Of a stretch of 64,000 nt of DNA, positions 8,487 through 59,609 are shown one piece after another. The stretch's first letter is position 1. Each line of letters starts with the position of its first letter. The position numbers and the translations under genes were made by a program. The notes under the pieces are model-generated. The model ran no database searches, was not told the origin of the DNA, and saw only the letters and a program-made list of their open reading frames with translations. The DNA comes from Naegleria gruberi (lineage: Eukaryota), in the NCBI GenBank assembly GCA_000004985.1, contig GG738864.1; one strand, written 5' to 3'.

Positions 8487-9361
8487 TTTTTATGACTAGT
8501 ACAGTGTGTGTTGTTGGCTGAGTGTTGTCCAAATATGAAGATATCAAAAACCTTACTACAGTTATTACAGTGCCCATAATACAGCTGAGGAAGAGCGTGC
8601 ATATTGCTGCCATAACCACACAACATGGTGGAAATCAATAATAAGCGATGTGTGGCACATGTTCATTGGTTGAAATAAAAGAAGATGCCTTGCTATTCGC
8701 AAAGTAGAATGCCAAAGTTTGCATTTTCAATCTTTTTTTAAATGGATGTTACTGTAATGTAAGGAAGCTTCAAAATTTATCAAAACTCTAAATGGATATT
8801 GTTCTTAATTTGAAACTGTGCACAATCTGACAAAGCAACTGCTTAGCAACAAATGTTCAACAACTCACTCAACCTTTGAGGGATTATTCCATAATATTGA
8901 TGGTTGATAGGGAGAGCCATTATTACATCAACCCAAATTGCAAAATGAATAACAAAGGTAGATTGATAAATTGCATTCTTTTTCATTACACTTAGAATAT
9001 TAAAACCTGTAATTTATTCTGGTGATAATAGACATTTCTTATACTCTAATATCTTTTATTTTCCTCTTTTTGTTGTTTTCCCATGGAGAATAATTGTAAA
9101 GTTTCTATCATTAACATGGTAAATCTTCAATATGTAAAATTACCACAAAAGATATTTATTAGGTAGAGAGTGGATAGTTTACATGCTTCTTGTCATGTTT
9201 CCGAGTGTAAAAGTAATCAACATCATAAGAAACTTAATAAAAACATCAATTATTCAGATATAGATGATCTCCAAGAGTTACGATACAAGACTTTAAATTA
9301 TACATTTAATAATTAAATAAACATTATACGTTGTTGTTTTATTATTGTTTAATTTGTAATT

Positions 9362-9672
9362 GGGCCATGAATCAACTCTGGTAGATGAAATATCGGAACT
9401 TGGCAAATTGATAAGATGATGAAAATCTGATAATAAATATGATGTTTATTATCTATTTAAATAGTAGTACTAAAAGACATGATTCAAGTTGGTGAAGTAC
9501 ATGTTGAGTTATGGTCCATGTACTTTTTCAAAATTCACATGTACCTATCCCTATCATAACTTGACCAAAATTGATAAGATAAAGTTCTCCTACCTACTAT
9601 TGACTATTCCGAACAATGCTACATTGACAGTTTTCCAACTTATCCAGTAGATCCAGCAGTGATCTTTGGATA
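9362..9672 (+). repeat. Copy 1 of a ~300-bp direct repeat family of unknown type
   Basis: By eye it is about 75-80% identical to 10862..11155. Shared blocks include gggaccatgaata, ctgataataaatat, ttcaagttggtgaagtacatgttgag, tatggtccatgtac and acatgtacctatc. Confidence 0.6.
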
Positions 9673-10861
9673 TAAAATTTTATTAAAATAATTAATTTTA
9701 TTGTTTAAAATCATCAAGAAATTTAATGCCATCATCTTTAGATGAATCTTGGAAAACTTTCAAATCAATAAGACTAGGTTTCATCACCATATCCACATGT
9801 ACAATATCGGAACATCATTCCAATATCATGGAGATACTCCCATAGGTGTGGAGAACCAAGTTTTATATCTTTAAAAAGTATTTCTCTTTCACAATTGTTT
9901 ATATATTTGAAACTTTCTACTAAAACAAAATAGATTAATATTGAAAAATAGAAATTCTCATGATAATAACCTTACCAAAATACTCTTTATATAACACATA
10001 TGTGTTGGAGTGCTTCCTTAACAATCTGCCTATCATTAAAGAAGCTTTTCCCTTGTTTAACATTCGCCTTAGATTAAAGAAAAAAATGGAAGAATAACTA
10101 ACCGTTTCCTTCATGCCATGTTTTAATAGTTGGACTTTATCTAATAAATTAACTCATCTCTACTATCAAGCAGACAGTAGTTATATAGAAAAAGAAATCA
10201 GTAATGCTTTAAAGAACAAGAATTGTAAAGTGTTCCAGGCAATTATATTCGAATAAAATTTATGCGAATAAATTTCATACTAAATAAATTCGCATGGTTT
10301 GGCAATGCGAAATTCATTCTTATGGTCATAACTTCCATAAATAAAGAATATGTTGAGAAAAGGTGTTTATCATTCTCCTTTTCCAATGTTTGAGGAAACA
10401 ACCAATAAGACCAAAACCATCGTCAAAAGTCATATTTTATATGGTGTTAAAGATTTGACTCTTTCTTCCTGATTTCAATTCAGGGAGTGTCCAAAATTTG
10501 TACAACACTTTCAAACAATCATGATATCAATCCCTCCTCATATCATGAAGTGAGGAATCATATTTATATGAAGAATAACCGCAGAATAATTTGCAAGATT
10601 TCAAAAACCTAAATACACAAAAACACAATAAAACATGATTAGAGAATCAACAATGGATTATTTACATGTAACTAGTCTAGTTTACATCAACAAATATGGT
10701 ATATGTGATGTGAAATTTAATTAAAAACAGAAAAATCAAAATCTTCATGATTTCAACGAAACAAGACGAAATAATTGATATGGTACATCTACAATAGTAC
10801 TAATAAAAGTTTATTAATGTTTCAAGAAGATTGACTGTGTACTTTTGGCATGAATCATGAT

Positions 10862-11155
10862 TGGGACCATGAATAACCCGAAGTTGGCAAAAACACAAAA
10901 TGATGAAAAACTGATAATAAATATATTGTTTATTATGTATTTGAATAGTAGTTATGAAAGACATTTTTCAAGTTGGTGAAGTACATGTTGAGATATGGTC
11001 CATGTACATGTTGAAAATATACATGTACCTATCATCATGATAAACAATAGGGAAATGTTCGGAAGTGATTTTACCTGATGGAATCGACCATGCTGAACAA
11101 TACTAGATTGAAAGTTTTCCAAATTATCATGTGAATCTGGCAGTGATGATGATTT
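10862..11155 (+). repeat. Copy 2 of the same ~300-bp direct repeat
   Basis: See copy 1. It has the same orientation and lies about 1.5 kb downstream. No LTR hallmarks (TG..CA ends, PBS, PPT) were found. Confidence 0.6.
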
Positions 11156-15500: not shown

Positions 15501-17765
15501 TTACAACCATTCAAATTCAACACAATCTGGATGGTAGAGCATAACTAATGGATAGACAGGAAGTCTCACATTTTCAAAACTGGCAAGTTCCTTATCATTT
15601 TTAAATATTTGTAATAGTTGACTTTTACAATCCAAAGAAAGTGTTAACACATCTCCAGCTCCAAACTCTGCTCCTTCCTTCTTGTAGTTGTGCATGTTTT
15701 TTAATTGTTTATCCCAAACGTAACCATTTCCAGAGAGGAAGTATCCACCAACGTTGAGATTTGCATCAGTTCCATATACACCTTCATCAGCAGTATCCCT
15801 TCTCATGACTCCTATACCAACCCATGTGAATTTTACAACTTTGATTTTCCATTTGAATGTGGAATTGCAATGATTCGTAGTTCCTAGTAAGGTATCAATG
15901 AATATTGAAGAGTAGAAACCAGCTACTGTCTTGCTTATTCTGTTTTGATTGATAGCTATACAGGAACGATCACATTTGAAGGAAGGAATAGTTCCCAATA
16001 GTCTTGTTCCATTAGAAACATCCAAAATATTATCTGAATATTTCAATATTCTCAAAGATTCATTTCCAAAGAGCATAAAGAATGGGTAAACTGGCAATTT
16101 AACATGGTTGATTCTAGTTACTCTATTTGCAAAATTATTCTTATAAAATGTGAGCTCACAATTTAAACAGTTCATTTCTACAATGATAGTATCTCCAATC
16201 TTGTAACTTGCCTTTGGATCCTTGGTGAACTTTGGCTCCACAAATCGATTCCAAGTATTTCCCTCATGATCTAATAGATAGGCTCCCTCTTGATTATAAG
16301 GATTTGTAGCAAATTTAAGCTGGTTTGTTTGGTTTTCCATCAAAACACCAATAGCATTGTACTGATCCAAATAGTCAATTTTAACTCTCCATCTCTTGAT
16401 ATTATCTTCAGTTTGACATTTGTCATTCAGCCAAACATTTGAATATTCACCATTATTGGACAGTTTCCTAATCAATGAACCATTCTTTTCAATCATACTC
16501 GAATCACAATTAAATTCGTAAGAGTTGTCAAGTTTTGGAAGGTTTGGTGAAGGAAACGATGTGACTTGTTGAAAATCTAACAATTCAACAGCATCAAGTC
16601 CATAACACATCACCAATGGGACAAGTGGCAATTTGACATTCTTGAAGGATGCAATATTCACTTCTTCCTTTGTAATTGTAAATTCCCTTGTTGAACAATT
16701 CAATTCCAGAGTAATGACATCTCCAGTGGAAGATTTAATTCCAACATTGGAGTTCTTACTATCTCCATTATAGCAGCAACTCCAAAGATAACCGTTAATA
16801 GTGTACATGTATCCTCCAAAACTAATTAATGGAGAAAGATCATAGTAGCATTCCTGAGCAATTTCTTGATCAACAGCTCCAACACCAATCCAATTTGCAT
16901 GTGTCAAAACTTTGATTTTCCATCTATATATTCCATAATCCTTGGCATCTCCTAATGATTTCCTTAAAAATAGAGAAGCATATGAACCTGATGTCAATTT
17001 TTGAATAACTCCATTTGTGCATTGATAATGATGTTTAGGATAGACAAATTCGAAGGTCTGTACTGCATCCATAGCTTCAGTCTCAGTTACACCCATAAAC
17101 TCGACACTCTCAGTTCCATGCATCATGAAAGAAGGATAAACAGGTAATCCAACATTTTTCACAGAACTCACAACAATACCATTCTTTAAAAATGTCAATT
17201 GACCAATTCTTGTATCCAACTCTACTGTGATAACATCTCCAACTCCATAGCTACCTCCTTTAATCACCAAATGTTTAGTATCTCCTGCAATTCTTCTATC
17301 CCAAATATAACCATTTGCAGAAAACATAAATTGACCATGTTCATCAAATGGTGTAAATGAAAATCTGTGATCCTTGACAATTGAAGTGTTTGCAACGCCA
17401 AGAGAAAACCAAGAATTCAAATTAATAATTTTAACATTCCATCTATAAATTAAATTTCCTTCAAGTAATTTATCTACAAATACACTGGAATATCCAATTT
17501 TGTTTTTTGCAATTATTACTGATGAAGAGGATGATGAAGGAGAAATTGGATCATAGAATGATTGATCAAGTATTAATGAAGGTAATTGTGTTGTTGCTGT
17601 TACTTTTGCTGTGGTTTCTTCCTTTGATGATACAAGTGTTGTTGTTGGCTTCTTTTTCTTTTCCAAACTTTCGAATAGCAAACCAAGACCTTTCTCTGCT
17701 GAGTATTGCAATGAATCAATAGGTGGTGGATCGATGAGTTTGGCTGGTGTTGTGGATGATGCCAT
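15501..17765 (-). CDS. Protein of 754 aa with four tandem SPRY/B30.2-like repeats
   Basis: A real ATG is present (ATG GCA TCA TCC ACA). Four repeats of about 180 aa each follow the pattern W(K/R)(V/I)K(I/V)...W(I/V)G(V/I)...GY(F/L)...NGY(I/L)WD...GD(V/I)(I/L)T(L/V)...LP(V/L)YP... Confidence 0.65.
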   Translation of the reverse strand: MASSTTPAKLIDPPPIDSLQYSAEKGLGLLFESLEKKKKPTTTLVSSKEETTAKVTATTQLPSLILDQSFYDPISPSSSSSSVIIAKNKIGYSSVFVDKLLEGNLIYRWNVKIINLNSWFSLGVANTSIVKDHRFSFTPFDEHGQFMFSANGYIWDRRIAGDTKHLVIKGGSYGVGDVITVELDTRIGQLTFLKNGIVVSSVKNVGLPVYPSFMMHGTESVEFMGVTETEAMDAVQTFEFVYPKHHYQCTNGVIQKLTSGSYASLFLRKSLGDAKDYGIYRWKIKVLTHANWIGVGAVDQEIAQECYYDLSPLISFGGYMYTINGYLWSCCYNGDSKNSNVGIKSSTGDVITLELNCSTREFTITKEEVNIASFKNVKLPLVPLVMCYGLDAVELLDFQQVTSFPSPNLPKLDNSYEFNCDSSMIEKNGSLIRKLSNNGEYSNVWLNDKCQTEDNIKRWRVKIDYLDQYNAIGVLMENQTNQLKFATNPYNQEGAYLLDHEGNTWNRFVEPKFTKDPKASYKIGDTIIVEMNCLNCELTFYKNNFANRVTRINHVKLPVYPFFMLFGNESLRILKYSDNILDVSNGTRLLGTIPSFKCDRSCIAINQNRISKTVAGFYSSIFIDTLLGTTNHCNSTFKWKIKVVKFTWVGIGVMRRDTADEGVYGTDANLNVGGYFLSGNGYVWDKQLKNMHNYKKEGAEFGAGDVLTLSLDCKSQLLQIFKNDKELASFENVRLPVYPLVMLYHPDCVEFEWL

Positions 17766-21116: not shown

Positions 21117-21163
21117 CTATAACACATTATCGATTAGTCAATCAAAAAAATACTGAAACTTAC

Positions 21164-22199
21164 CTGCAAAGGTTTCCTCATATTCCTTTTTATCCTTTCT
21201 GCCAATTAGGAAAAGTCTTTGAGTTAATGCTCTTTGAATTCTATCCAATAGTTTTTCACTACACGAAGAAACAAACTTTTTCTTTCTCTTTTCAGTTGAA
21301 TCAACAGGTGGAGATGTCATGGTTGCAAGTGGACTATCAGCAGGAATGGTTGTTGTTGAAACTGGTTGAGCTGGAGTGGAGTCCTTCTTTTTCCTAGATT
21401 TCTTTTTTTCAGAATGGGCCTTTGGTGTGGCAGCATTTGTAATTTTCAATTCTGGTGACGATGGACGTACTACTTGTTGTGAGCTGGTCTGTGTTGATAT
21501 TCCAGTAATTTGTGAGCTTGATGGTGTTATTGAAGATCTAGGAGAATTGATATTAAGTTGTGAGAGAGGAACAGTGGTCGAAGGAGAGAATAAAAGTTGG
21601 GAATATTGATCCAAATGAAGATTTGCCAAATCATTAAAGGTTGGCGTAGGAACATGTGATGATGCTGTTTGAGAGTATGATAAGGATGCATTACTACTGA
21701 GTGGAGTATGAATTGGTTGTTGTTCTGCCTTGAATGATCCATCAAGATATGGACCTAGAATATTCTTTCTATCAGTTTGTTTTGTTGGAGTTGTAAATCC
21801 TCCTTGTGATGATGTAGTTGACATTGGAGAGACAGTTCCTGGTGATGTTAAACTTGTCGAGGACATTGGGGAAGAACCTGGTGTTGCTTTGCGTCCATTT
21901 CTCCTCTTTGTTGGTGTTGTGATTTCAGGTTTTACTTCTGCCTTTACGAAAATAACATCATCAGTCACTCCATTCGATGTCACAGGACTATTATCTAAAG
22001 AAATAACCTCTATAGAAGAGTGTGGTCTTTTCATAGGAGATGCTTTTTGAGGAGAAGGCATATTACTGTATTGATTATTGTGAGAATATGATCCAGAATG
22101 TTGATGTTGTTGATGTGGTGGAGTATTACTTTGTGTTGGTTGATAAAAGTGTGGTTGATGAATTGGTTTGGAAGGTGACAGTGTTGGTGGTGGATTCAT
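21164..22199 (-). CDS. ZSWIM2-like exon 1, about 345 aa of Ser/Thr/Pro/Gln-rich low-complexity N-terminal region
   Basis: It is a long open frame ending at the donor GCA G|gtaagt. It has a real ATG (ATG AAT CCA CCA) at 22199. Confidence 0.5.
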
Positions 22200-22441
22200 T
22201 CCGAAATTATTTGTTGTTGTTGGTGATGCATTGCATTGTTTGTTGTTGCTACTCCTCCATTTAAATTGAATGTTGAAGCATTCAATCGTAACACTCTAAT
22301 CAATTCCGTCAATTGTTTTGTAGAGAATTGTTCCACACCTTTCGTAATATTAAATTCTCTCTTTAGCACATCCAAATAAATTCTATCGGTAAAACTTGTT
22401 GGCGATTGTTGCAGTTGTTGTTGTTGTTGGGAATCACTCAT
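22196..22441 (-). CDS. Small 81-aa ORF with a real ATG, directly upstream of the ZSWIM2-like exon 1 and offset from it by one base. It may be the true N-terminus, or a uORF.
   Basis: It begins ATG AGT GAT TCC CAA and carries a poly-Q. Its TGA overlaps the ATG of ORF 21138..22199 (gGAATGAATcc). A single-base indel would fuse the two. Confidence 0.2.
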   Translation of the reverse strand: MSDSQQQQQLQQSPTSFTDRIYLDVLKREFNITKGVEQFSTKQLTELIRVLRLNASTFNLNGGVATTNNAMHHQQQQIISE

Positions 22442-23008
22442 TGTTCTTGGTTTATAATGACCTTGCCAAAGATGATGGGACTGAATAAATCAAAGCAGCG
22501 GCAGAATATCAATATGTTGTGATATTTTTTTTGAAATTATTAACGGCAATTTTTTTTTAGCTTTTGATCACAAAAGATTGGAAGTTGTAATATTCTTGAT
22601 TGATGATGAAAATAATATTCGCTGCGTTCATCCGGGAAGACTTTGAGGCAAAAGTACAAAAAAATTGATAAACACCACTGGTCCCAGCACAATTTGACCC
22701 TCCACCATTGTTAATCTGAGTCATCTCTCATCAGGAAATCTTCTCTCTTCAACCTCTGCGTATTGGATGGTACTTCTCTTGTTTGAATGTATTTTGAAGG
22801 TTCCAGTTGATAACCGAAACGATATGTTCTGAGCACTCTTTCCAGCATAGAAGCTTTGAAAGTATGCTCAGCACATAATTGACATCATGATAAATTATTG
22901 GAAAGTGAGCAATCATGGCTGTTCAACACTGTAGTTCCTTCTTTCGTCAGCAAAATGAACAGAAAGTTATACCACTCACCATATTTATAAATAATCTATT
23001 TTTATTAA

Positions 23009-23048
23009 TTGCTATTTTTATTATTTTTTAATTGAAATTAATTTTTAT
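23009..23048. repeat. Perfect AT-rich palindrome (15-nt arms, ttaattgaaattaat / attaatttcaattaa, with a 10-nt spacer)
   Basis: The right arm is the exact reverse complement of the left arm. Flanking A/T runs extend the stem to about 21 nt. Confidence 0.7.
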
Positions 23049-23937
23049 TAACATTAATTTCAATTAAAAAAAAATGCCTAAACCAAATCATCTGATCCTT
23101 GAACCATGGCAGTTAATGAAGAAAGTAAGTAGTTTATAGTAAATAATTAACAATTTGAACAGAATTAATTGAGTTATTCAGTGAAACTCAAAAACAAGCC
23201 TAAATCCAATTTAAACTAAAACAATTGATCAACGTAAGTTTTTTTATCATTTCAACTTTTATTTAACTAAAAACCTAGTCCGCACAATCAAACCAGCAAC
23301 AACAGTCATTAACAAATGTAAGTTTAAACCGATTTATTTATTGATGATTAACATATTTTTTTGTTAAATATCTGAAATTTTCAACTGTCACAAAGAGAAG
23401 GGTATTGAGTTGATTCATTAGTTGTAAGTCACTTTACTTTTATTGTTATTAATTCAAAACTAACAAGAATACATTATTGAAGAGCCCTTAACTGACCCGA
23501 AGAGGATGATCTTGAAGAAGAAGGCTGACAGAACTCATAGTGCTTCAAATCAACTGTTTCTTCTTGGCCTTTTCGTTAGCACTGAATCAATGATGATTAA
23601 GCTTATATTACGGCTGTGATGTGGTGCCATTTTTTTGTTGATTACTTCCAATTTATTTAGGTTGACCACAACTATTTTCAATAAACATTTTTCTTCAACT
23701 ACAAGTCAAATCAAGTCTTCTGAGAACAATGTAAAGTGAGCAATCTGAGCACACATACTAGCACACCCCCCAGAACAGTGCTCAGAAGACTTCTCAGCAC
23801 ACCTCTCAGAACTGTGCCCAGATCAATCCCAGCACAGATTCCTAGCACAGTGCCTAGAAGTGTGCTGGAGATGATTTACCTGGGAAGCCCCTGGGATGAC
23901 CACTCGGAATACAACCACGATCATACTCATCAAACGA

Positions 23938-24660
23938 CTATTTTCTCCTCTTGTTATTATTCTCTTTTGATTCCGAAGGTCTTTTTCTTTTTAAATCATT
24001 TCCTTCCTCATCATCATGATTTTTTACTTCTTCTTCCGATGATGATTCCGAAGATGAGCAAACTTTCTCTTCATCATCGGAAGAATTAATAGCTTCCCTA
24101 ATTCTTGTTCTCACCCTTTCCAATCCAACTTGTCTTGCTTTTGGTACGCCTCTCGTTCCATGCCACAATTCAGCATTGTCAGTGGCTAGTAAAACCTTCC
24201 TTGCTTCTTCATTCTGTGAGAATTTGCAATATAACATCTCCTCCAACAGGGAAAACTTCTTCCGATTCCACTCTCTTATCTGTTCATCATTCAACATGAC
24301 CATTTTACGTTGTTTTCTAGCATCTTCTCCATCTCCTTTCGAAAGCTTACTTTTACTCTCTAAACAAAATTGATGAGCCTTCTCTGTCGATGCAAGAGCA
24401 ATCTTTTGAGCATGAAAGCAATGTTCAACCGTTCTGTACGATTTGTTCTTGTATGTAAACGTTCCGATATGAAAGTTTGAGAGAATTTGTCGCCAATTCT
24501 TAATTTTGGATAGTTTTGAAAAATCATCGGAAGGATTTAGAGTTTCGTTTGCTCCTTTTCCAGGTGCTTTATCAGCAGATTTTGAGTAAAAGAAGAGAAT
24601 TGATGATGTTGGACCTTCTTCGTTGCTACTTTGAGACATTTTTTTATTGTAATTTTTCAT
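23938..24660 (-). CDS. NADAR (DUF1768, YbiA-like) domain protein
   Basis: The domain motifs are ILSNFHIGTFTYKNKSYRTVEHCFHAQKI...LLATDNAELWHGTRGVPKARQVGLER. I take ATG 24660 (MKNYNKKMSQSS) as the start; an alternative is ATG 24640. The tool's start at 24705 is a non-ATG codon. Confidence 0.55.
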   Translation of the reverse strand: MKNYNKKMSQSSNEEGPTSSILFFYSKSADKAPGKGANETLNPSDDFSKLSKIKNWRQILSNFHIGTFTYKNKSYRTVEHCFHAQKIALASTEKAHQFCLESKSKLSKGDGEDARKQRKMVMLNDEQIREWNRKKFSLLEEMLYCKFSQNEEARKVLLATDNAELWHGTRGVPKARQVGLERVRTRIREAINSSDDEEKVCSSSESSSEEEVKNHDDEEGNDLKRKRPSESKENNNKRRK

Positions 24661-24695
24661 TTCCTCCAAAAGATGGAAAATAAAATAACAAAAAA

Positions 24696-25934
24696 ATGTC
24701 ATCACAATTAAACATCAGCTTTCATAGATCAAATCATCAAGAAGAATCTGATTTTCTGATCTCTACTTCGTTTATTCATTGCCATGTCCACGAAAGTATT
24801 ATCAAGAAACATTTTAAAATGTTAGAAACAATGATGAATGGTAAATGGAAAGTTGAAAAGAAGGAAAATTTAACAATTTTTGAATTTGATTCGGAAAGTG
24901 AGAAGGAAATAGTTGGATTGATGGAAGAACAAAAGAAACAATTGCTCATGAAATGTCTTCTTTCGAATATTTATAAGAAAGAAGGAGAGAAAGTAGAAGA
25001 AAGTCAATTTTTGATTGAATATGACTTTTTGACTTGTTTTTACAATCTTGCTAATTATTTAGGTGCTGATGACTTATGCTCCTACTTGTTATTGGAACAA
25101 GATATCTTCCCGCCAACTGTCAAATTATTTCTTTACAAATTATGGAAACTTGACATTCCAGAAAAGATAAGAATTTCTTGGCTTTTCAAAGTTGAAACTC
25201 TTTCAGATTGCGAATTTGGTGAGCTACCAGTTGAAGCTCTCGATCAGATTATGGACGATGATTTAATTTCATTAAGTTCCAAGATTAAAATCTATGTGAA
25301 TCATGTTTCAAAGAATGGAGCTGAGAATTATGTGAAAATTGCTGAAAAGCTTAAGAAACTTTACGAATCATGTGGAAACTTGTTGGTGAATGATAATTTT
25401 GATTCCACTATTCAAGATTATTTGTTGGAATACTATGATATTTTCAAGGAAAGAACTCAAGTTGAAGATGCCAACGACACGCAACTATTCGAAACTGAAA
25501 CATTTATTCATTATTTTAGCATCTTTTTGGAGCTTGATTCTACAGATGATGAACCATATCCACTTTTAACAAAATTGAAGCTCAATTTGGAACAACATGA
25601 TAGCGATTCCATCTATTGGTGGTATTTCAAATTTCAAAATTCACTTCCAGATAATTTCAATGTCAGATTTTATTGTACATGTGACAATACTGACCTTTTT
25701 ATTAATGATTGGATTGAGAAATTGAATCCAATTCACTTGAAAGACTATTCTAAACCTCAAACTATTGACACCGATCAAGGATTTGAAAGTTTTGATGGTG
25801 AATCTTACATCACTCTTCATTCCTTAATTGTAATTGAAAAGGAAAATCCAAATAAGAGAAATCACGCAAATCTTCCAATCAATGATAATGACAATGAATT
25901 GAATTCCCTTTCCAAAAAGCAAAAATCAGATTAA
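24696..25934 (+). CDS. Hypothetical 412-aa protein with no recognisable domain
   Basis: It has a real ATG and a long open frame. It diverges head-to-head from the NADAR gene, with the two start codons only about 35 nt apart. Confidence 0.45.
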   Translation: MSSQLNISFHRSNHQEESDFLISTSFIHCHVHESIIKKHFKMLETMMNGKWKVEKKENLTIFEFDSESEKEIVGLMEEQKKQLLMKCLLSNIYKKEGEKVEESQFLIEYDFLTCFYNLANYLGADDLCSYLLLEQDIFPPTVKLFLYKLWKLDIPEKIRISWLFKVETLSDCEFGELPVEALDQIMDDDLISLSSKIKIYVNHVSKNGAENYVKIAEKLKKLYESCGNLLVNDNFDSTIQDYLLEYYDIFKERTQVEDANDTQLFETETFIHYFSIFLELDSTDDEPYPLLTKLKLNLEQHDSDSIYWWYFKFQNSLPDNFNVRFYCTCDNTDLFINDWIEKLNPIHLKDYSKPQTIDTDQGFESFDGESYITLHSLIVIEKENPNKRNHANLPINDNDNELNSLSKKQKSD

Positions 25935-27693: not shown

Positions 27694-27751
27694 GTAGGTT
27701 TGCATTGTGCATATTAGTATATTAATAGGTAATATTCAAAATGAATGATAG

Positions 27752-38865: not shown

Positions 38866-38940
38866 AGATATTTAAATAATGGATCATTAGATATCATCAC
38901 CAACAGTACTACCAAATTGATTTCAAGTTCCGATAAAAAG

Positions 38941-39255
38941 TTATTCATCATCGTCATCAAAGGTTTCTCCATATTCTTGTTTAATAGAGTCAAACAATTG
39001 CTGTTTGCTCTCCTCGAATTTATTCCTCAACTCTTCGTATACTTTTTCATATTCATCAAACATTTCCTCCTCTGCCGAATCTAGAACAATTTCCCTCTTA
39101 CAGACTGCTGGTTGTCCCGAAAATTCTGATGAAAGGGTAAAAATCTTATTTTCTTTAAAATCGAGCGTTGCTGATGGTGGAAGAGGAGGAGGTACAACTA
39201 TGGAATTTAGAGCATTATCATAATCCTCGAAATCCTCATCGTCATACAAAACCAT
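38941..39255 (-). CDS. Small acidic protein (104 aa)
   Basis: A real ATG is present (ATG GTT TTG TAT GAC GAT). The protein is rich in D/E at both ends and has a PPPLPP motif. Confidence 0.3.
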   Translation of the reverse strand: MVLYDDEDFEDYDNALNSIVVPPPLPPSATLDFKENKIFTLSSEFSGQPAVCKREIVLDSAEEEMFDEYEKVYEELRNKFEESKQQLFDSIKQEYGETFDDDDE

Positions 39256-39836
39256 TTTTTTTAAATATTTTTAAATATTATTATTATTTTAAAAGGTTCT
39301 CATTTACTGTTTGGATTCAAGTACGTAATAATAAAAATACTTAATTTATTAAATTAATTTCAATTATGTTCATCGAGCTTCAATTATACCAATAAGGAAA
39401 CGTAAAAATAACTATCTTAAATCCTCACAAACAACAAACTATTTCACTAAGGAATTGATACAAAACTTCTGTTATACAACAAAACCACTTCACTGAGCCA
39501 TCTATTCAACAATGGTCAACATCGTACATTCATAATTTTATTGCCCTCATCACAATTTTGGGCAAATTCAAGTTTTGTAATCTCCATGTCTACAGCTGCG
39601 ATCTTTGGAGAATAGGAGAAAACTTTGAGTTTTAAAATAAACTTCGCACTCTTGTCGTTAAAAAAAATTTACATTAAAAAAAAGCGGCAATTCTCTTCCA
39701 ATCCCTTCTCTCCTGTACATTACCTAGATTTGGCTGCTTTTTGAAGCTTCATCGCTATCATACAATTTCCATCACCATCATCAAAAATAATATTATTATT
39801 ATTTTATTAAATTTTTAATAGATCATTCCGAATATC

Positions 39837-40466: not shown

Positions 40467-40549
40467 GTATGTTATTTGTTTTATATTTGATTTTTTAACA
40501 CAATCATTTCCGATTTCATTATCTTCTATTGGATAATTAATAATTACAG

Positions 40550-45787: not shown

Positions 45788-47236
45788 CTAGAATGAGATT
45801 CTGAAACCTTCAGGACAAAATGGAACTGCCTTCATTATGAACCTTTCTGTTTGATCCACAAAGTAGAAGGACAAAGCATTTTCATCTCCAAGTTTCAAGC
45901 GATACACTCTTCCAATTGATGAGAAGAAGATATATTGACCATTAGGAGAGATTGAATACGAAACAGGTTGCATCAAATAGGTTTCATTTCCTCTCCTCCC
46001 TTCAAGTGGAACGACCAAGCTCTTTACCTTCGAGCCAACAATTGTCGTGATAATTCCTTTTGAGATTCTTCTAATGAGGTTATTTTTCGAATCAAATACA
46101 TACAAGTCACCATCATTGGTGTAGTGAATATCTTTAGGTTGATTGAAGAGTGTTTTTGAAGCGTCACTTTCTGTATTGTATCCAGACACTCCAGGAATAC
46201 CATAGAGAGTAGAAATGATGCCCTCCTTTGAAACTTTTCTAATAACATGATCTTGTGTATCTGCAATAACCATTTCGCCTTCAACACTGACAAAGAAGGA
46301 GGAAACTTCTTGAATTTTGGCCTCTGTTGCTGGAAGTCCATCACCCAAGCCACCTGCAACCTTGGTAAGAGTATTTCCTTTTACTTTCCATACGAAACGA
46401 GTTGGTTCGGTAAAGTAAATTTCATCTTCTGTTTCACCAAAACAGAGAGAATCAATTGAAACGAATCGAGTTTCCAAAGGGTTGGAATAAGAAGTAGTTG
46501 TAGCATCAGAACCAACAATTCTCACCAATTTACCATCCACAACCTTACTCACAAACATTTCATGGGCAACATGTATTTCATCCTTACTGTTAATCAAAAC
46601 AGATGATGGCATTTTCACATCGATAAACCTTTCCCAAGTTCCATCTGTTTTAAGCTTGAAAAGGAATGATCCAAATTTTAAGGCAATAATGAAATCACCA
46701 TTTGAAAGTACATCAAAGGATGAAATAGAGGAGGTTTTATCTTGACGAACTAGTTCCGTTTGACTAGTTACGGCTTTGACAATAGTCAAAGAATCTAGAA
46801 GGCATAGATAAATATCACCATTATCCATTATTTTCATTTTACCTGGCAAAACTATTCTAGATAGATGCTCATATTTGGAATTTACCTTAAGGGTTTCCAA
46901 ATTCAAAATTTTTAAACTATTGCCCTCAATAAAGAAAATCTGACAATCCTTTTCAGTTAAAGAATAAATTTCACACTACAATATTTTTCTGGCCAATTTC
47001 TTATTAAACGACTTGAGGGGAGCTGTGCTTAATTTCCAGCCAAAATTTTTGTAATGATGAGCCGTCTTGTTGTTGTCGTTTAGTGGGATGAAATATTGTG
47101 GTGCTCTTTCCTTCATCCATACTGGTTCTCCAATCACCGAATTTGTACCTTCTTCATTATCGGGAGAGATTGTTCCTCCAGCAATTCTCATGGTCCTCCA
47201 TCTTAATGGAATTTTGATTAGATGTATACAGCACAT
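45788..47236 (-). pseudogene. Truncated tandem paralog of the NHL-repeat gene. It is one continuous frame interrupted by an in-frame TAG at 46976..46978, and it has no signal peptide and no TM.
   Basis: ORFs 46976..47236 and 45788..46906 share a frame and are separated only by TAG. The N-terminal piece MRIAGGTISPDNEEG... matches the ISTIAGGETLLSPDELPIGRP region of gene 42224..45532. The C-terminal ~250 aa align with that gene's last NHL blades (MVIADTQDHVIRKVSKEGIISTLYGIPGVSGYN matches ILIADSGHHVIRKVSKNGIMSTLYGIPGVHGYN). No splice removes the stop. Confidence 0.55.
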
Positions 47237-47304
47237 CTAATTTTTAACTCTAAGGCAACGCTGTTTTTGTCTGTATATGAAGAATTTATTTTTATGAATG
47301 TGAA

Positions 47305-47375
47305 GCGTCGATGGTTTAGTGGTAGAATACGGCGTTGCCATCGCCGTGACCCGGGTTCAATTCCCGGTCGACGCA
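47305..47375 (+). tRNA. tRNA-Gly (anticodon GCC)
   Basis: The 71-nt sequence is GCGTCGATGGTTTAGTGGTAGAATACGGCGTTGCCATCGCCGTGACCCGGGTTCAATTCCCGGTCGACGCA. It has a 7-bp acceptor stem GCGTCGA/TCGACGC, a D-arm, the anticodon loop TTGCCAT and a T-arm GGGTTCAATTCCC. A T-run (TTTTT) lies about 15 nt downstream. Confidence 0.88.
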
Positions 47376-47993
47376 TGAATTATCTTTTTATTCATTCTTT
47401 TTTGAAGTAATTTGAATTATTTTTCTACCACTCATAGAAGACATGTATTTGTACAATAATCTGTATTTTCTCTCAATTTAGAACAGTAATCATCGAGATA
47501 TTCACCTCCTTCCAAATAGCATTTTTTAACCTAAAAAATATGCTAAAAAAAGATGCCTACTAACTTTTTAACAACAACAATACAGATTCAATCTATTGAA
47601 AATCTCCTTGAAAACATGCCGTCAACATGAATTCTAATCACCAATGGATTTTAACGATTCCCAATGAGGATATTCTTTACCAACCTGGTCATTGTGAAAT
47701 GAAAATCGCCAAAAACAATATAGAGATAATGGCTAATTCTCATCTTGTCTTCAATTTTTAACAATGATTGGTTAAGGGTTTGAGATACCAAAAATCTTCA
47801 CTCCTTCAGCGAAAAATTGCCCGAAGCGGCATTGCACACAAATAAGAAACCTTAGAAAATACACATTTAAGAACATCTCTTTGAGAGTTGAAATTGCCCG
47901 AGTCTTTTAATATTTACTAAGGACCAAAAAAACAACACAACAAGTACTGAGCAAATTCCATCTTCTGAACACCAACAAACCTTAATCAACAAC

Positions 47994-52517: not shown

Positions 52518-52566
52518 CTGGTACCATTAGTTAATATTGCAATAATCACAAATGATATCAACTTAC

Positions 52567-52714
52567 AGGCCTCTGCAGATGCAACACTAGGTTGGAAATA
52601 ATCAAATAATAAAGTATCTGGAGGTTCTTCTATTTGTTTTGGAAGGGTTACTATCAATTCCGATAAATTTAAAGTATCTTGTACATGACCTCCTTCCAGA
52701 GTTTCATCAATTAT
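52567..52714 (-). CDS. apm4: AP-4 mu, exon 3
   Basis: IIDETLEGGHVQDTLNLSELIVTLPKQIEEPPDTLLFDYFQPSVASAEA matches AP-4 mu [24 protein letters not shown]. GT-AG introns of 79 nt and 49 nt flank this exon. Confidence 0.6.
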
Positions 52715-52793
52715 CTAATCATCGAGATCGAGGCAATAATTCAATAATATTATTAATACTCTTAATATTAATATTCTTAATATATCAACTCAC

Positions 52794-53071
52794 CTCATAA
52801 ATTAAATCCTGATTAATCCAAACCTTCTTCTCACTCAACACTCCTATATAATCATTAATTACTAAATACAATCGATCGAGATATTCAATCGGAACAGAGG
52901 GTGAAATATTCTGTCTACTCGTACACATGAAATACAAATCATTTCTCTTAATATGAAAGAATGTTATACCAAATATCACAAAGCAAGAGGGTGCATTCTC
53001 TCCCTTCTCCTTTGCAGCCTTAATCCTCCTGAAGAATATATCCTGAACATTATCTATAATATCGTGCCTTA
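52794..53071 (-). CDS. apm4: AP-4 mu, exon 2 (longin-like N-terminal domain)
   Basis: RHDIIDNVQDIFFRRIKAAKEKGENAPSCFVIFGITFFHIKRNDLYFMCTSRQNISPSVPIEYLDRLYLVINDYIGVLSEKKVWINQDLIYE aligns with the AP-4 mu stretch [52 protein letters not shown]. Confidence 0.6.
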
Positions 53072-53122
53072 CTATTTGAATTAACAGTATATTTCTGTAT
53101 AAAAATTACTTGAATAACTCAC

Positions 53123-53180
53123 AATTACGAGATATAATCTTATCCCCTCTATTGGACAATATACACACGTGTGTGATCAT
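53123..53180 (-). CDS. apm4: AP-4 mu, exon 1 (MITHVCILSNRGDKIISRN)
   Basis: It has a real ATG and the family's N-terminal pattern M-I-x-x-x-f-I-L-x-x-x-G-D. The 51-nt intron 53072..53122 removes an in-frame TAA and keeps the frame. Confidence 0.55.
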
Positions 53181-53629
53181 TGTGCTCTCTTGGTGATGAT
53201 CAGAAAATATTTTTTAAGCAAAATAAATTTCTATGAATAAGGGTGATAGTTTACTATTATTATTATTCATATTATTTATGATGTCCAATGGATGGGAATA
53301 CTGTATAATGATGTAATACATTATTCTAGAGGAAAAATACTTTCAAAAAACAACAATTTATTCAAATCATTTAAAAAAACAGTAGTTGCCTTCAGCGGTA
53401 TCTTTTCATTCCGCCAAAATTATTTTTAACGTTCATTTTCTTCCCGCCTTTCAAATCTCGCGCCAATTTTTTCACAACGCCTGTCAGAAATCACAATAAA
53501 TAATTCATCAATATTAATTTCTCTTTGAAAAAAAAATCAACAACATACAACTCTAACTCACAACATTACCTTGTGTGTCTAAGTACAAAAACTCCCAACA
53601 CTAAACAACAATAATCTAACTTTATACAA

Positions 53630-55558: not shown

Positions 55559-55604
55559 GTAAGTTTGTTAAGCCACTTTAGAATATACTTATAGTTTCGA
55601 ATAG

Positions 55605-57913: not shown

Positions 57914-58289
57914 TTCGGGAAGTAATAGTATTGAATGTTGTTCTTTACAATTTTTTCAATAGTTAATAGATTAGGAAACTTACTTTCGACAAATTCAGTT
58001 TCCACATGATCATCTGTATGAAAGTGAGGTAAATGAGAAGGAGAAAAGACATGATTCAATGCATAAACATTCGTCAGGTTTAGTACTTGCATTTTTTTAT
58101 GTGTTTTTTTGATCAAAAAAGTAATCTTTCCAATTCATTCCATCATTGAATTCTATCATTGAACTTTTAATACAATTCAACACTATTTAGTAATACTATT
58201 TTGTAAACTATTAAACTCCGAAAAAATCTGGCGCCAAAATTCCTTATCAAGAAGACAATCCACAATTTAATTGGACCACTTTAAAAAAA

Positions 58290-58775
58290 ATGGCTAGTTT
58301 ACGAACTGCTAATGGATCTTTCATGTTTGTTGCAGCAGCATTCTTGATTTTCGTAATCATGATGATCACAATGATGGAAAATATTGTTGCAATTTCCATC
58401 CTTCCGAATAATGATGAACTGAAAGTTTTTCATTCCGAATTTGCCAAATATTTGCAAATTATTAATGAGGTAAATAGAGATTATCGTGATGGTGCTTCTA
58501 CTTGGATGGCTGCTCCTAATGATGTAATGAGAAATCCAGAGCGAATTCAATTTTTAGGCTTGAAGAATATGAAACAATTGGAGGAGTTTGAGATGAAGGT
58601 CAATGGAGGGGAATTATCGCAATTTATGAAGGAACACTTGATCTTGTTGAGAACATTGATTAAGAGAGGTGCTATGGAACCACCTAAGAGTGTGAGTGGA
58701 AAATCTATTTTGAAGAGAAACTATATGAATATTGCTGAATTTGACAGTAGACAAAAGTGGCCAAATTGCGTTCAT
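58290..58775 (+). CDS. Cathepsin B-like cysteine protease, exon 1 (signal/TM-like N-terminus plus propeptide)
   Basis: A real ATG is present. The hydrophobic segment FMFVAAAFLIFVIMMITMM follows. The propeptide ends ...QKWPNCVH, at the donor CAT|gtaagt. Confidence 0.8.
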
Positions 58776-58820
58776 GTAAGTTTAGTTTGATAAATAATTG
58801 AAACATAATCTGAATGATAG

Positions 58821-58963
58821 CCAATCAGAGACCAGGGCAATTGTGGTAGTTGCTATAGCTTTGCAAGTTCAGAAGTAATGAGTGATAGATTTTGTATATT
58901 TTCAAATGGTTCTGTCAATGTCGTCTTGTCACCTCAAGATTTAGTGACCTGTTCTTGGTATTC
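58821..58963 (+). CDS. Cathepsin B-like, exon 2 (active-site Cys)
   Basis: [46 protein letters not shown] matches cathepsin B [29 protein letters not shown]... Confidence 0.8.
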
Positions 58964-59009
58964 GTAAGTTTCTTGTTTTTAGAGTAAAGTTAAATTTCGA
59001 TCATTCAAG

Positions 59010-59379
59010 ATTTGGATGTAATGGAGGTATTCCAGGTTTAGTTTTTGATTATATTCACAAGGATGGTTTAGTGTCTGATGCTTGTTTCCCATACTTGTCC
59101 TATGATGGTAATACCCATGTTAAGTGTCCTGATTTCTGCTATAACAACAAAACCAAGTCATTCAAGAGTGATAAGCATTTTGCTGATAAGGTTTATCATG
59201 TTGGTGAATTTTTGGAAGATAAAGCAAAACGTGTTTTGGAAATTCAAAAAGAAATCTTGACCCATGGACCAGTGAATGCTGATTTTATGGTCTATTCTGA
59301 TTTTACAGTGTACAAGAGTGGAGTTTACAGACATCAAACTGGATCTTTTGAAGGAATTCATGCTGTTAAAATTATTGGA
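59010..59379 (+). CDS. Cathepsin B-like, exon 3 (occluding-loop region and active-site His)
   Basis: The exon reads FGCNGGIPG...HGPVNADFMVYSDFTVYKSGVYRHQTGSFEGIHAVKIIG. Confidence 0.8.
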
Positions 59380-59444
59380 GTAAGTTGTAATATTCAGTGC
59401 TCTAGATATTAATGGATTACTAAAATTATTTAAATTTGAAATAG

Positions 59445-59538
59445 TGGGGAACTGAGAATGGAGTTGATTATTGGTTGATTGCCAATTCGTGGGGAACAAC
59501 ATTTGGTTTGCAAGGATTTTTCAAAATTGTTAGAGGAG
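59445..59538 (+). CDS. Cathepsin B-like, exon 4 (active-site Asn)
   Basis: The exon reads WGTENGVDYWLIANSWGTTFGLQGFFKIVRG. Confidence 0.8.
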
Positions 59539-59609
59539 GTAAGTTTATACATCTTGAAGAGAAAAGTAGTAATTAATAATTAAAATACCTTTGATTTTCT
59601 ATGTTATAG

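Follow-up and report, generated by a model that had tools for sequence, protein, structure and literature searches.

Among described mobile elements, Helitrons begin with 5'-TC and end in CTRR-3', insert between A and T without duplicating their target and carry a hairpin 10-12 nt before the 3' end, LTR-type elements are delimited by TG...CA ends, with near-identical terminal direct repeats and a 4-6 bp duplication, and classic subterminal repeats are usually mirrored. Introners, in turn, occur as many near-identical copies, each of which constitutes a single intron in a gene. In Naegleria gruberi, recognised transposons account for 0.28% (bioRxiv 10.64898/2026.06.24.734286), and repeats have been put at 5.1% (PMC6125883). 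Here we report a segment of N. gruberi DNA that combines a cluster of consensus splice donors with two motif-bearing, GC-richer patches and that is missing as a whole from a very close environmental strain. The observation is real and non-random, and the reading that accounts for it best is a noncoding insertion confined to one of the strains, probably a small mobile element, with intron-like signals in its interior.

The window, by which we mean the whole 64-kb stretch of DNA that was analysed, is N. gruberi nuclear DNA with a GC content of ~33%. The ORF at 15501-17765(-) is 100% identical to an N. gruberi SPRY-domain protein at NCBI, and the 412-aa ORF at 24696-25934(+) was equated with XP_002677848.1 by exact look-up. 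The gap under study (22442-23937) is the second largest ORF-free gap of the window and lies between two minus-strand genes, encoding a Q-rich protein on the left and a NADAR-domain protein on the right:

22196..22441, minus strand: first coding ORF of the left neighbour, a Q-rich protein, with a positive codon-usage score
23938..24660, minus strand: right neighbour, the NADAR-domain gene (Pfam PF08719, E 2e-13)

Elsewhere in the window, the largest ORF-free gap spans 8490-11126 (2.6 kb), further gaps of ~1 kb are found at 1786-2823, 38866-39821, 46976-47891 and 52531-53614, and two runs of N, assembly gaps of 50 nt each, are located at 1110-1159 and 2236-2285.

Look-up of the 412-aa neighbour returned a 98%-identical protein in the ENA metagenome ERZ929261, and the same metagenome was found to contain an orthologue of the left gene (environmental protein P0004, 95% identical to the ORF at 22196-22441) on contig L002, of 1949 nt. 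With protein identities of 95-98%, the environmental strain is near-identical to the reference. In reverse complement, L002 aligns with the window to position 22617 (...GATGATGAAAATAATA) and picks it up again at 23912 (CAACCACGAT...), in the stretch just beyond the NADAR stop codon, with 130 identical nt to the left of the junction and 98% identity over 200 nt to its right. The resulting difference is delimited by the following features:

22618..23911, plus strand: segment found in the reference but missing in the environmental strain, 1294 bp, including the right AATA (23908-23911)
22614..22617, either strand: left junction repeat AATA; the window has it at each junction, the environmental contig a single time
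22618..22633, plus strand: left terminal inverted repeat candidate, TTCGCTGCGTTCATCC
23894..23909, plus strand: right terminal inverted repeat candidate, GGATGACCACTCGGAA (reverse complement TTCCGAGTGGTCATCC)

The two strains, very close otherwise, almost certainly differ at 22618-23911 by one insertion or deletion. Both GC-richer patches lie inside this interval, as does the entire cluster of GTAAGT donors, and its boundaries fall just outside the two patches. The segment starts 176 nt from the ATG of the Q-rich gene (at 22441) and ends 26 nt from the NADAR stop codon (23938-23940), and the C-terminal tail and stop codon of the NADAR gene are kept in the environmental strain. Without the segment, the intergenic gap measures ~200 bp, a length that suits the gene-dense genus Naegleria; the N. 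lovaniensis genome is 77% coding (PMC6125883). Because the sibling strain lacks the entire unit, the segment is not a conserved essential RNA gene. Immediately to the right of the junction, three substitutions are clustered within 15 nt, at 23922-23926 (CGATCATACTCATC versus CGATAATGGTCATC), and the environmental version of this stretch contains TGGTCATC, resembling the right end of the segment.

The two flanking genes present several peculiarities of their own. In the reference, the Q-rich gene is divided between ORFs 22196-22441 and 21138-22199, whose frames differ, P0004 being continuous; the split maps to 22190-22250(-), where a stretch of GCATT/GTT repeats differs in length by a net 1 nt, and reflects either a true frameshift or a sequencing error in the reference. 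In the NADAR coding region, an A-run at 24055-24065 reads AAA in the reference and AA at positions 40-50 of L002, which would shift the environmental frame; being located near the end of the contig, this difference may be an assembly error. Exact look-ups with the genes at 21138-22441 and 23938-24660 retrieved neither as an N. gruberi protein, and homology searches with both yielded nothing beyond the left gene's environmental orthologue and remote NADAR relatives, at 29-49% identity in metagenome loci and 32-35% in the protein search. Both genes thus seem to be absent from, or modelled differently in, public annotation. NADAR proteins at 47-49% identity are encoded on freshwater JGI metagenome contigs (L003-L006). 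At 24636-24705, the start codons of the NADAR gene and of the divergent 412-aa gene (ATG at 24696) lie only ~35-60 nt apart, and with the longest NADAR ORF their start regions overlap, so that the pair has an extremely short common promoter region.

Examination of the segment ends revealed an imperfect inverted repeat. In the register that places TA at 22616-22617, which is the one giving the best terminal inverted repeat, the two 16-nt ends match at 11 positions (P ~0.005, as the best of 5 registers against 20000 random position pairs, 0.5% of which reach 11/16), while a gapped comparison of the ends was not significant. The AATA (or TA) present at both junctions is the trace that a microhomology deletion would be expected to leave as well. 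The repeat allows a Tc1/mariner-like element, with a 2-bp duplication, or superfamilies with 3-4-bp duplications, and the clean empty site typical of DNA transposons with terminal inverted repeats is observed, L002 joining 22617 directly to 23912. No second copy of the segment was detected within the 64-kb window. Searches of JGI metagenomes for further copies or alleles gave 0 matches, or only the NADAR relatives at 29-49% identity, a scan of viral contigs likewise gave 0 matches, and a scan of prokaryote genomes produced 2 matches to a 19-mer versus ~4 expected by chance.

Other element classes agree poorly with the end sequences, size or copy structure of the segment. At 1290-1294 bp, and with one copy seen within the window, the segment departs from miniature inverted-repeat elements (MITEs), for which a length of <~800 bp and a high copy number were used as the criteria. 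No register or orientation of the junction yields the TC...CTRR ends of a Helitron. The ends read TTCG...CGGAA and not TG...CA, which rejects an LTR, solo LTR or TRIM element, and the two patches share only words of 14-16 nt, which rejects diverged long terminal repeats. An introner was also rejected, given that the segment is intergenic and unlike the other introns in the window and that its four donor units are dissimilar to each other.

The two GC-richer patches near the segment ends contain reiterated words and potential hairpins:

22680..22960, plus strand: GC-richer subterminal patch on the left, containing AGCACA-core and GAAAGTRWGC words
23745..23870, plus strand: subterminal array on the right, made up of C[CT][CT]AGCACA-type units that recur every 12 nt
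22820..22881, either strand: hairpin H1, CTGAGCA / TGCUCAG, -24.8 kcal/mol (z -5.0 on the plus strand, -5.5 on the minus strand)
23713..23792, either strand: hairpin H2 (z -2.8 on the plus strand, -2.3 on the minus strand)
23794..23869, either strand: hairpin H3 (z -4.2 on the plus strand, -5.0 on the minus strand)

A preliminary description of the locus, made from the sequence, had proposed that the two patches share reiterated motifs and form short inverted repeats. Both propositions were borne out, with the motifs concentrated in this region of the 64-kb window. Both exact window copies of AAGTGAGCAATC are located here (22903 and 23734), as are all three of CTGAGCAC (22829, 23745 and, on the minus strand, 23778), five of the six window matches to CYYAGCACA (0.8 expected) and, within 1.3 kb, seven of the 16 plus-strand matches to AGCACA in the window (0.3 expected). 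AGCACA faces the same way at both ends of the segment, with seven instances on the plus strand and one on the minus strand. Furthermore, the patches have in common a 16-mer with 15/16 identity at a distance of 831 bp, a level reached by one of 300 shuffles. The inverted repeats correspond to H1, H2 and H3, which are more stable than shuffled sequences, and structure prediction on the right patch, which the preliminary description had singled out, returned the plus-strand z-scores of -2.8 and -4.2 listed above for H2 and H3. Patches and hairpins sit ~60-340 nt from the left end and 40-200 nt from the right end of the segment.

Between the patches, exact GTAAGT hexamers occur on the plus strand at 23125, 23234, 23318 and 23424, together with a series of features that could delimit a spliced transcript:

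22982..22994, plus strand: TATA-like TATTTATAAATA, read from the sequence ~80 nt upstream of the ATG at 23074, with a putative promoter role
23020..23075, either strand: AT-rich palindrome with 26-nt arms, 92% complementary (DNA fold z -3.6)
23074..23124, plus strand: candidate exon 1, an ATG and 17 codons up to the first GTAAGT
23125..23162, plus strand: candidate intron 1, GTAAGT...TTAAC...ACAG, 38 nt, 21% GC, with an alternative acceptor at 23181
23234..23278, plus strand: candidate intron 2, GTAAGTTT...TTAAC...CTAG, 45 nt
23318..23395, plus strand: candidate intron 3, GTAAGTTT...TCAAC...AAAG, 78 nt
23424..23467, plus strand: candidate intron 4, 44 nt, with an uncertain acceptor, ACTAAC lying only 4 nt before the AG
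23680..23685, plus strand: AATAAA, the sole one on this strand inside the segment and a possible 3' end signal

The four hexamers had been reported in the preliminary description, with two of the positions (23124 and 23428) off by 1 and 4 nt, respectively, and its view that they are unlikely to have arisen by chance is upheld by our estimates. GTAAGT is not enriched overall in the window (23 instances on both strands versus 23.5 expected), and the Poisson probability of four instances within 305 nt of one strand is 4e-7 to 1.3e-6, or ~3e-4 to 1e-3 once the scan of 64 kb on both strands is corrected for. The four units do not align to each other, so that the hexamers are not copies of one repeat and a tandem-repeat origin was ruled out. 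As described, each donor is followed by an AG, at 38 (or 57), 45, 78 and 44 nt; the acceptors are A/T-rich, like those of the introns deduced elsewhere in the window, and not pyrimidine-rich as had been claimed. Similarly, the stops reported in all frames of the intervening micro-exons are present in micro-exons 2 and 4, whereas two of the three frames of exon 3 (23279-23317) are free of them. Another four plus-strand GTAAGT are found within 770 nt at 58776-59544, among the coding ORFs 58215-58790 and 58948-59412, and this group is probably an ordinary multi-intron gene.

The candidate introns were compared with introns elsewhere in the window that had been deduced from ORF continuity (including 55559-55604, 7922-7888(-), 34203-34151(-), 27694-27751, 40467-40549 and 57983-57901(-)). 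These introns are AT-rich, measure 35-83 nt, end in YAG and have GTAAGTTT, GTAGGTTT or GTATGT as donors; the median intron length in N. lovaniensis is 80 bp (PMC6125883). The candidates measure 38-78 nt, with ~21% GC, and their donors match the GTARGTTT consensus of the deduced introns, two of the four (candidate intron 2 among them) carrying the extended donor GTAAGTTT. In three of the four, a YTAAC-like word lies 10-13 nt before the AG. GT-AG ends, donor consensus, branch-site-like motif and length are thus all as expected of U2-type introns. The splice-site-like word AAAGT[AG][AT]G also concentrates in the segment, which holds four of its eight plus-strand matches in the window and, within the segment, has it on this strand only. 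Removing the candidate introns restores no ORF, and, whichever acceptor of intron 1 is chosen, the frame of exon 1 runs into a stop right away in the exon that follows. The sequence is therefore compatible with a spliced noncoding unit on the plus strand.

Analysis of coding potential gave consistently negative results across the region. With a codon-usage profile for which 19 long ORFs from the window served as the training set, log-odds scores for 22442-23937 were near or below zero in all six frames, versus +5 to +13 in real genes, and an exhaustive search for GT-AG spliced ORFs yielded at best 92 aa, at the cost of implausible junctions. The longest ORF of the region, 121 codons on the plus strand over the right patch, has no relative among 1.84 billion representative proteins searched with HMMER and no Pfam match. 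A concatenated six-frame protein query also returned no match; this query missed P0004 as well, with which it shares ~45 residues, and is not relied on here. A protein-coding gene made up of small exons and missed by annotation, whichever its strand, is accordingly scarcely credible: the ATG right before the first donor, a 37-aa ORF in the last putative exon and the 121-aa ORF are what such a gene could be built from, and they are set against the codon-usage scores, the closure of micro-exons 2 and 4 in all frames, the lack of a homologue and the lack of a plausible model in the spliced-ORF search.

The preliminary description had also offered a known noncoding RNA locus as an option, for which Rfam provides no support. 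Searches of the region against Rfam 15 returned nothing at the gathering score and nothing credible at E values up to 10, the best match being SNORD24 with 25 bits versus the 41 needed, and no snoRNA or other known RNA was found by Rfam in the candidate introns or exons. The sole match at the gathering score in the window is a tRNA-Gly (GCC) at 47305-47375(+). In the papers searched, neither this element nor any Naegleria lncRNA is described.

Together, these results lead us to propose that the segment is a non-autonomous cut-and-paste DNA transposon or its remnant, an interpretation to which we give even chances of being correct. Among the options raised in the preliminary description, the remnant of an element with motifs common to its terminal regions has the best support, the environmental strain lacking exactly 22618-23911. 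It is favoured by the clean empty site, with flanks 98-100% identical up to the junction, by the junction AATA repeat containing TA, by the 11/16 inverted repeat at the very ends, by the position of the boundaries just outside motif-bearing subterminal regions with arrays and hairpins near both ends, by the lack of coding signal in the segment and by the ~200-bp gap that is left without it, which fits a gene-dense genus. The splice-site words that resemble those of real introns (the four GTAAGT and AAAGT[AG][AT]G) were also counted towards the best explanation. Under the proposed scenario, the element would have integrated at the TA within AATA, 26 bp past the NADAR stop codon and 176 bp before the ATG of the next gene, with its ends forming the short imperfect inverted repeat. 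The subterminal patches, with their AGCACA-core words, GAAAGTRWGC words and hairpins, may be binding sites for a transposase supplied in trans, and the AT-rich interior may be either a decayed intron-rich gene of the element or a noncoding plus-strand unit that is still transcribed and spliced. That the idea of a spliced transcript holds, as a property of the insert, is a tentative proposition that we consider somewhat less probable than its contrary. A long shot is the stronger version, in which a recently mobile heterolobosean element carries an actively spliced multi-intron noncoding unit with a U1-type 5' splice-site array.

Several observations weaken the transposon interpretation. Mobility is a presumption, a single copy having been seen in the 64-kb window that was searched for the segment. 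The inverted repeat is weak and not significant in the gapped comparison, a microhomology-mediated deletion in the other strain would leave a 4-bp repeat as well, the AGCACA words of the two ends have a common orientation, 1.29 kb is large for a miniature element, no remnant of a transposase was detected, and recognised transposons are scarce in N. gruberi.

Some of these same observations suit a different history, in which the segment is ancestral host DNA with a spliced noncoding RNA gene, the main reading of the preliminary description, and was lost from the environmental strain by a deletion between the two AATA copies. We regard this as unlikely, though worth keeping in view: the donors are consensus donors, the intron-like segments are right in both length and composition, a TATA-like box precedes the unit and an AATAAA follows it, coding signal is lacking and the 4-bp microhomology at the junction fits a deletion, but the sibling strain does without the segment, which is hence not essential, and no Rfam family matches. 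Moreover, a host gene would leave a 1.5-kb gap in a compact genome, and a random loss would not put its boundaries outside patches with an above-chance terminal inverted repeat. The coincidence of several independent enrichments on one strand of this 1.3 kb, the 15/16-identical 16-mer that the patches share 831 bp apart and the dissimilarity of the four GTAAGT units make it improbable, in turn, that the segment is nonfunctional filler DNA gained or lost by repair, with a GTAAGT cluster and motifs produced by chance or local slippage. Slippage can nonetheless create the 12-nt tandem array of the right patch, GTAAGT is not enriched over the whole window and, by extrapolation, a cluster of four GTAAGT is expected ~0.2-0.7 times by chance per 41-Mb genome. 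An assembly artefact, whether a chimeric environmental contig or a misjoined reference, is very improbable. L002 is short, with only 200 nt of right flank past the junction; yet both flanks are unique matches at 98-100%, the sequences joined have no more than 4 nt in common, such a join is beyond de Bruijn assembly at k=127 and the reference has no N runs nearby, only those at 1110-1159 and 2236-2285.

The position of the segment bears on the neighbouring genes. The 176 nt upstream of the Q-rich gene are untouched, and on the opposite side one further feature is relevant to the NADAR transcript:

23652..23657, minus strand: first minus-strand AATAAA downstream of the NADAR stop codon, with a putative 3' UTR running through the right patch

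Because the first downstream minus-strand AATAAA lies at 23657-23652, NADAR transcripts of the reference strain probably include the right patch, in antisense, in their 3' UTR, where hairpins of -29 and -40 kcal/mol are predicted. The segment would thereby have put structured foreign sequence into a likely 3' UTR, and it accounts for an unusually long gene-free gap. If truly a clean insertion, it would testify directly to recent activity of mobile DNA in N. gruberi, a model amoeboflagellate, or at the least to structural polymorphism there. If the four units are truly spliced, it would represent a rare mobile multi-intron noncoding unit, with bearing on the spread of splice signals: a transposon that spreads spliceosomal signals would be a possible source of new introns in a transposon-poor genome, and one that uses them could exert splice-site-dependent control of neighbouring transcripts. 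If the segment is a single-copy leftover, the finding is ordinary.

Compared with known systems, the segment resembles introners in being a possibly mobile segment with consensus splice signals, and differs from them in that it is a single 1.3-kb intergenic segment with four donors. With spliced lncRNAs and other noncoding host genes, it shares promoter-like and poly(A)-like signals that bracket short consensus GT-AG introns, and exons that cannot be translated; unlike such genes, it holds no known RNA and is absent from a sibling strain. Its likeness to non-autonomous transposons with terminal inverted repeats (Ds-type elements and TA-targeting Tc1/mariner derivatives) comprises a discrete presence/absence segment, a short direct repeat at the junction (TA/AATA), candidate inverted ends that are short and imperfect, the lack of an ORF, motif clusters and hairpins no farther than ~300 bp from either end and a location that is intergenic or in a 3' UTR. 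It differs from these transposons in the single copy seen within the window, in the weakness of its inverted repeat (11/16), in the same-facing orientation of its motifs and in a size larger than that of typical miniature elements.
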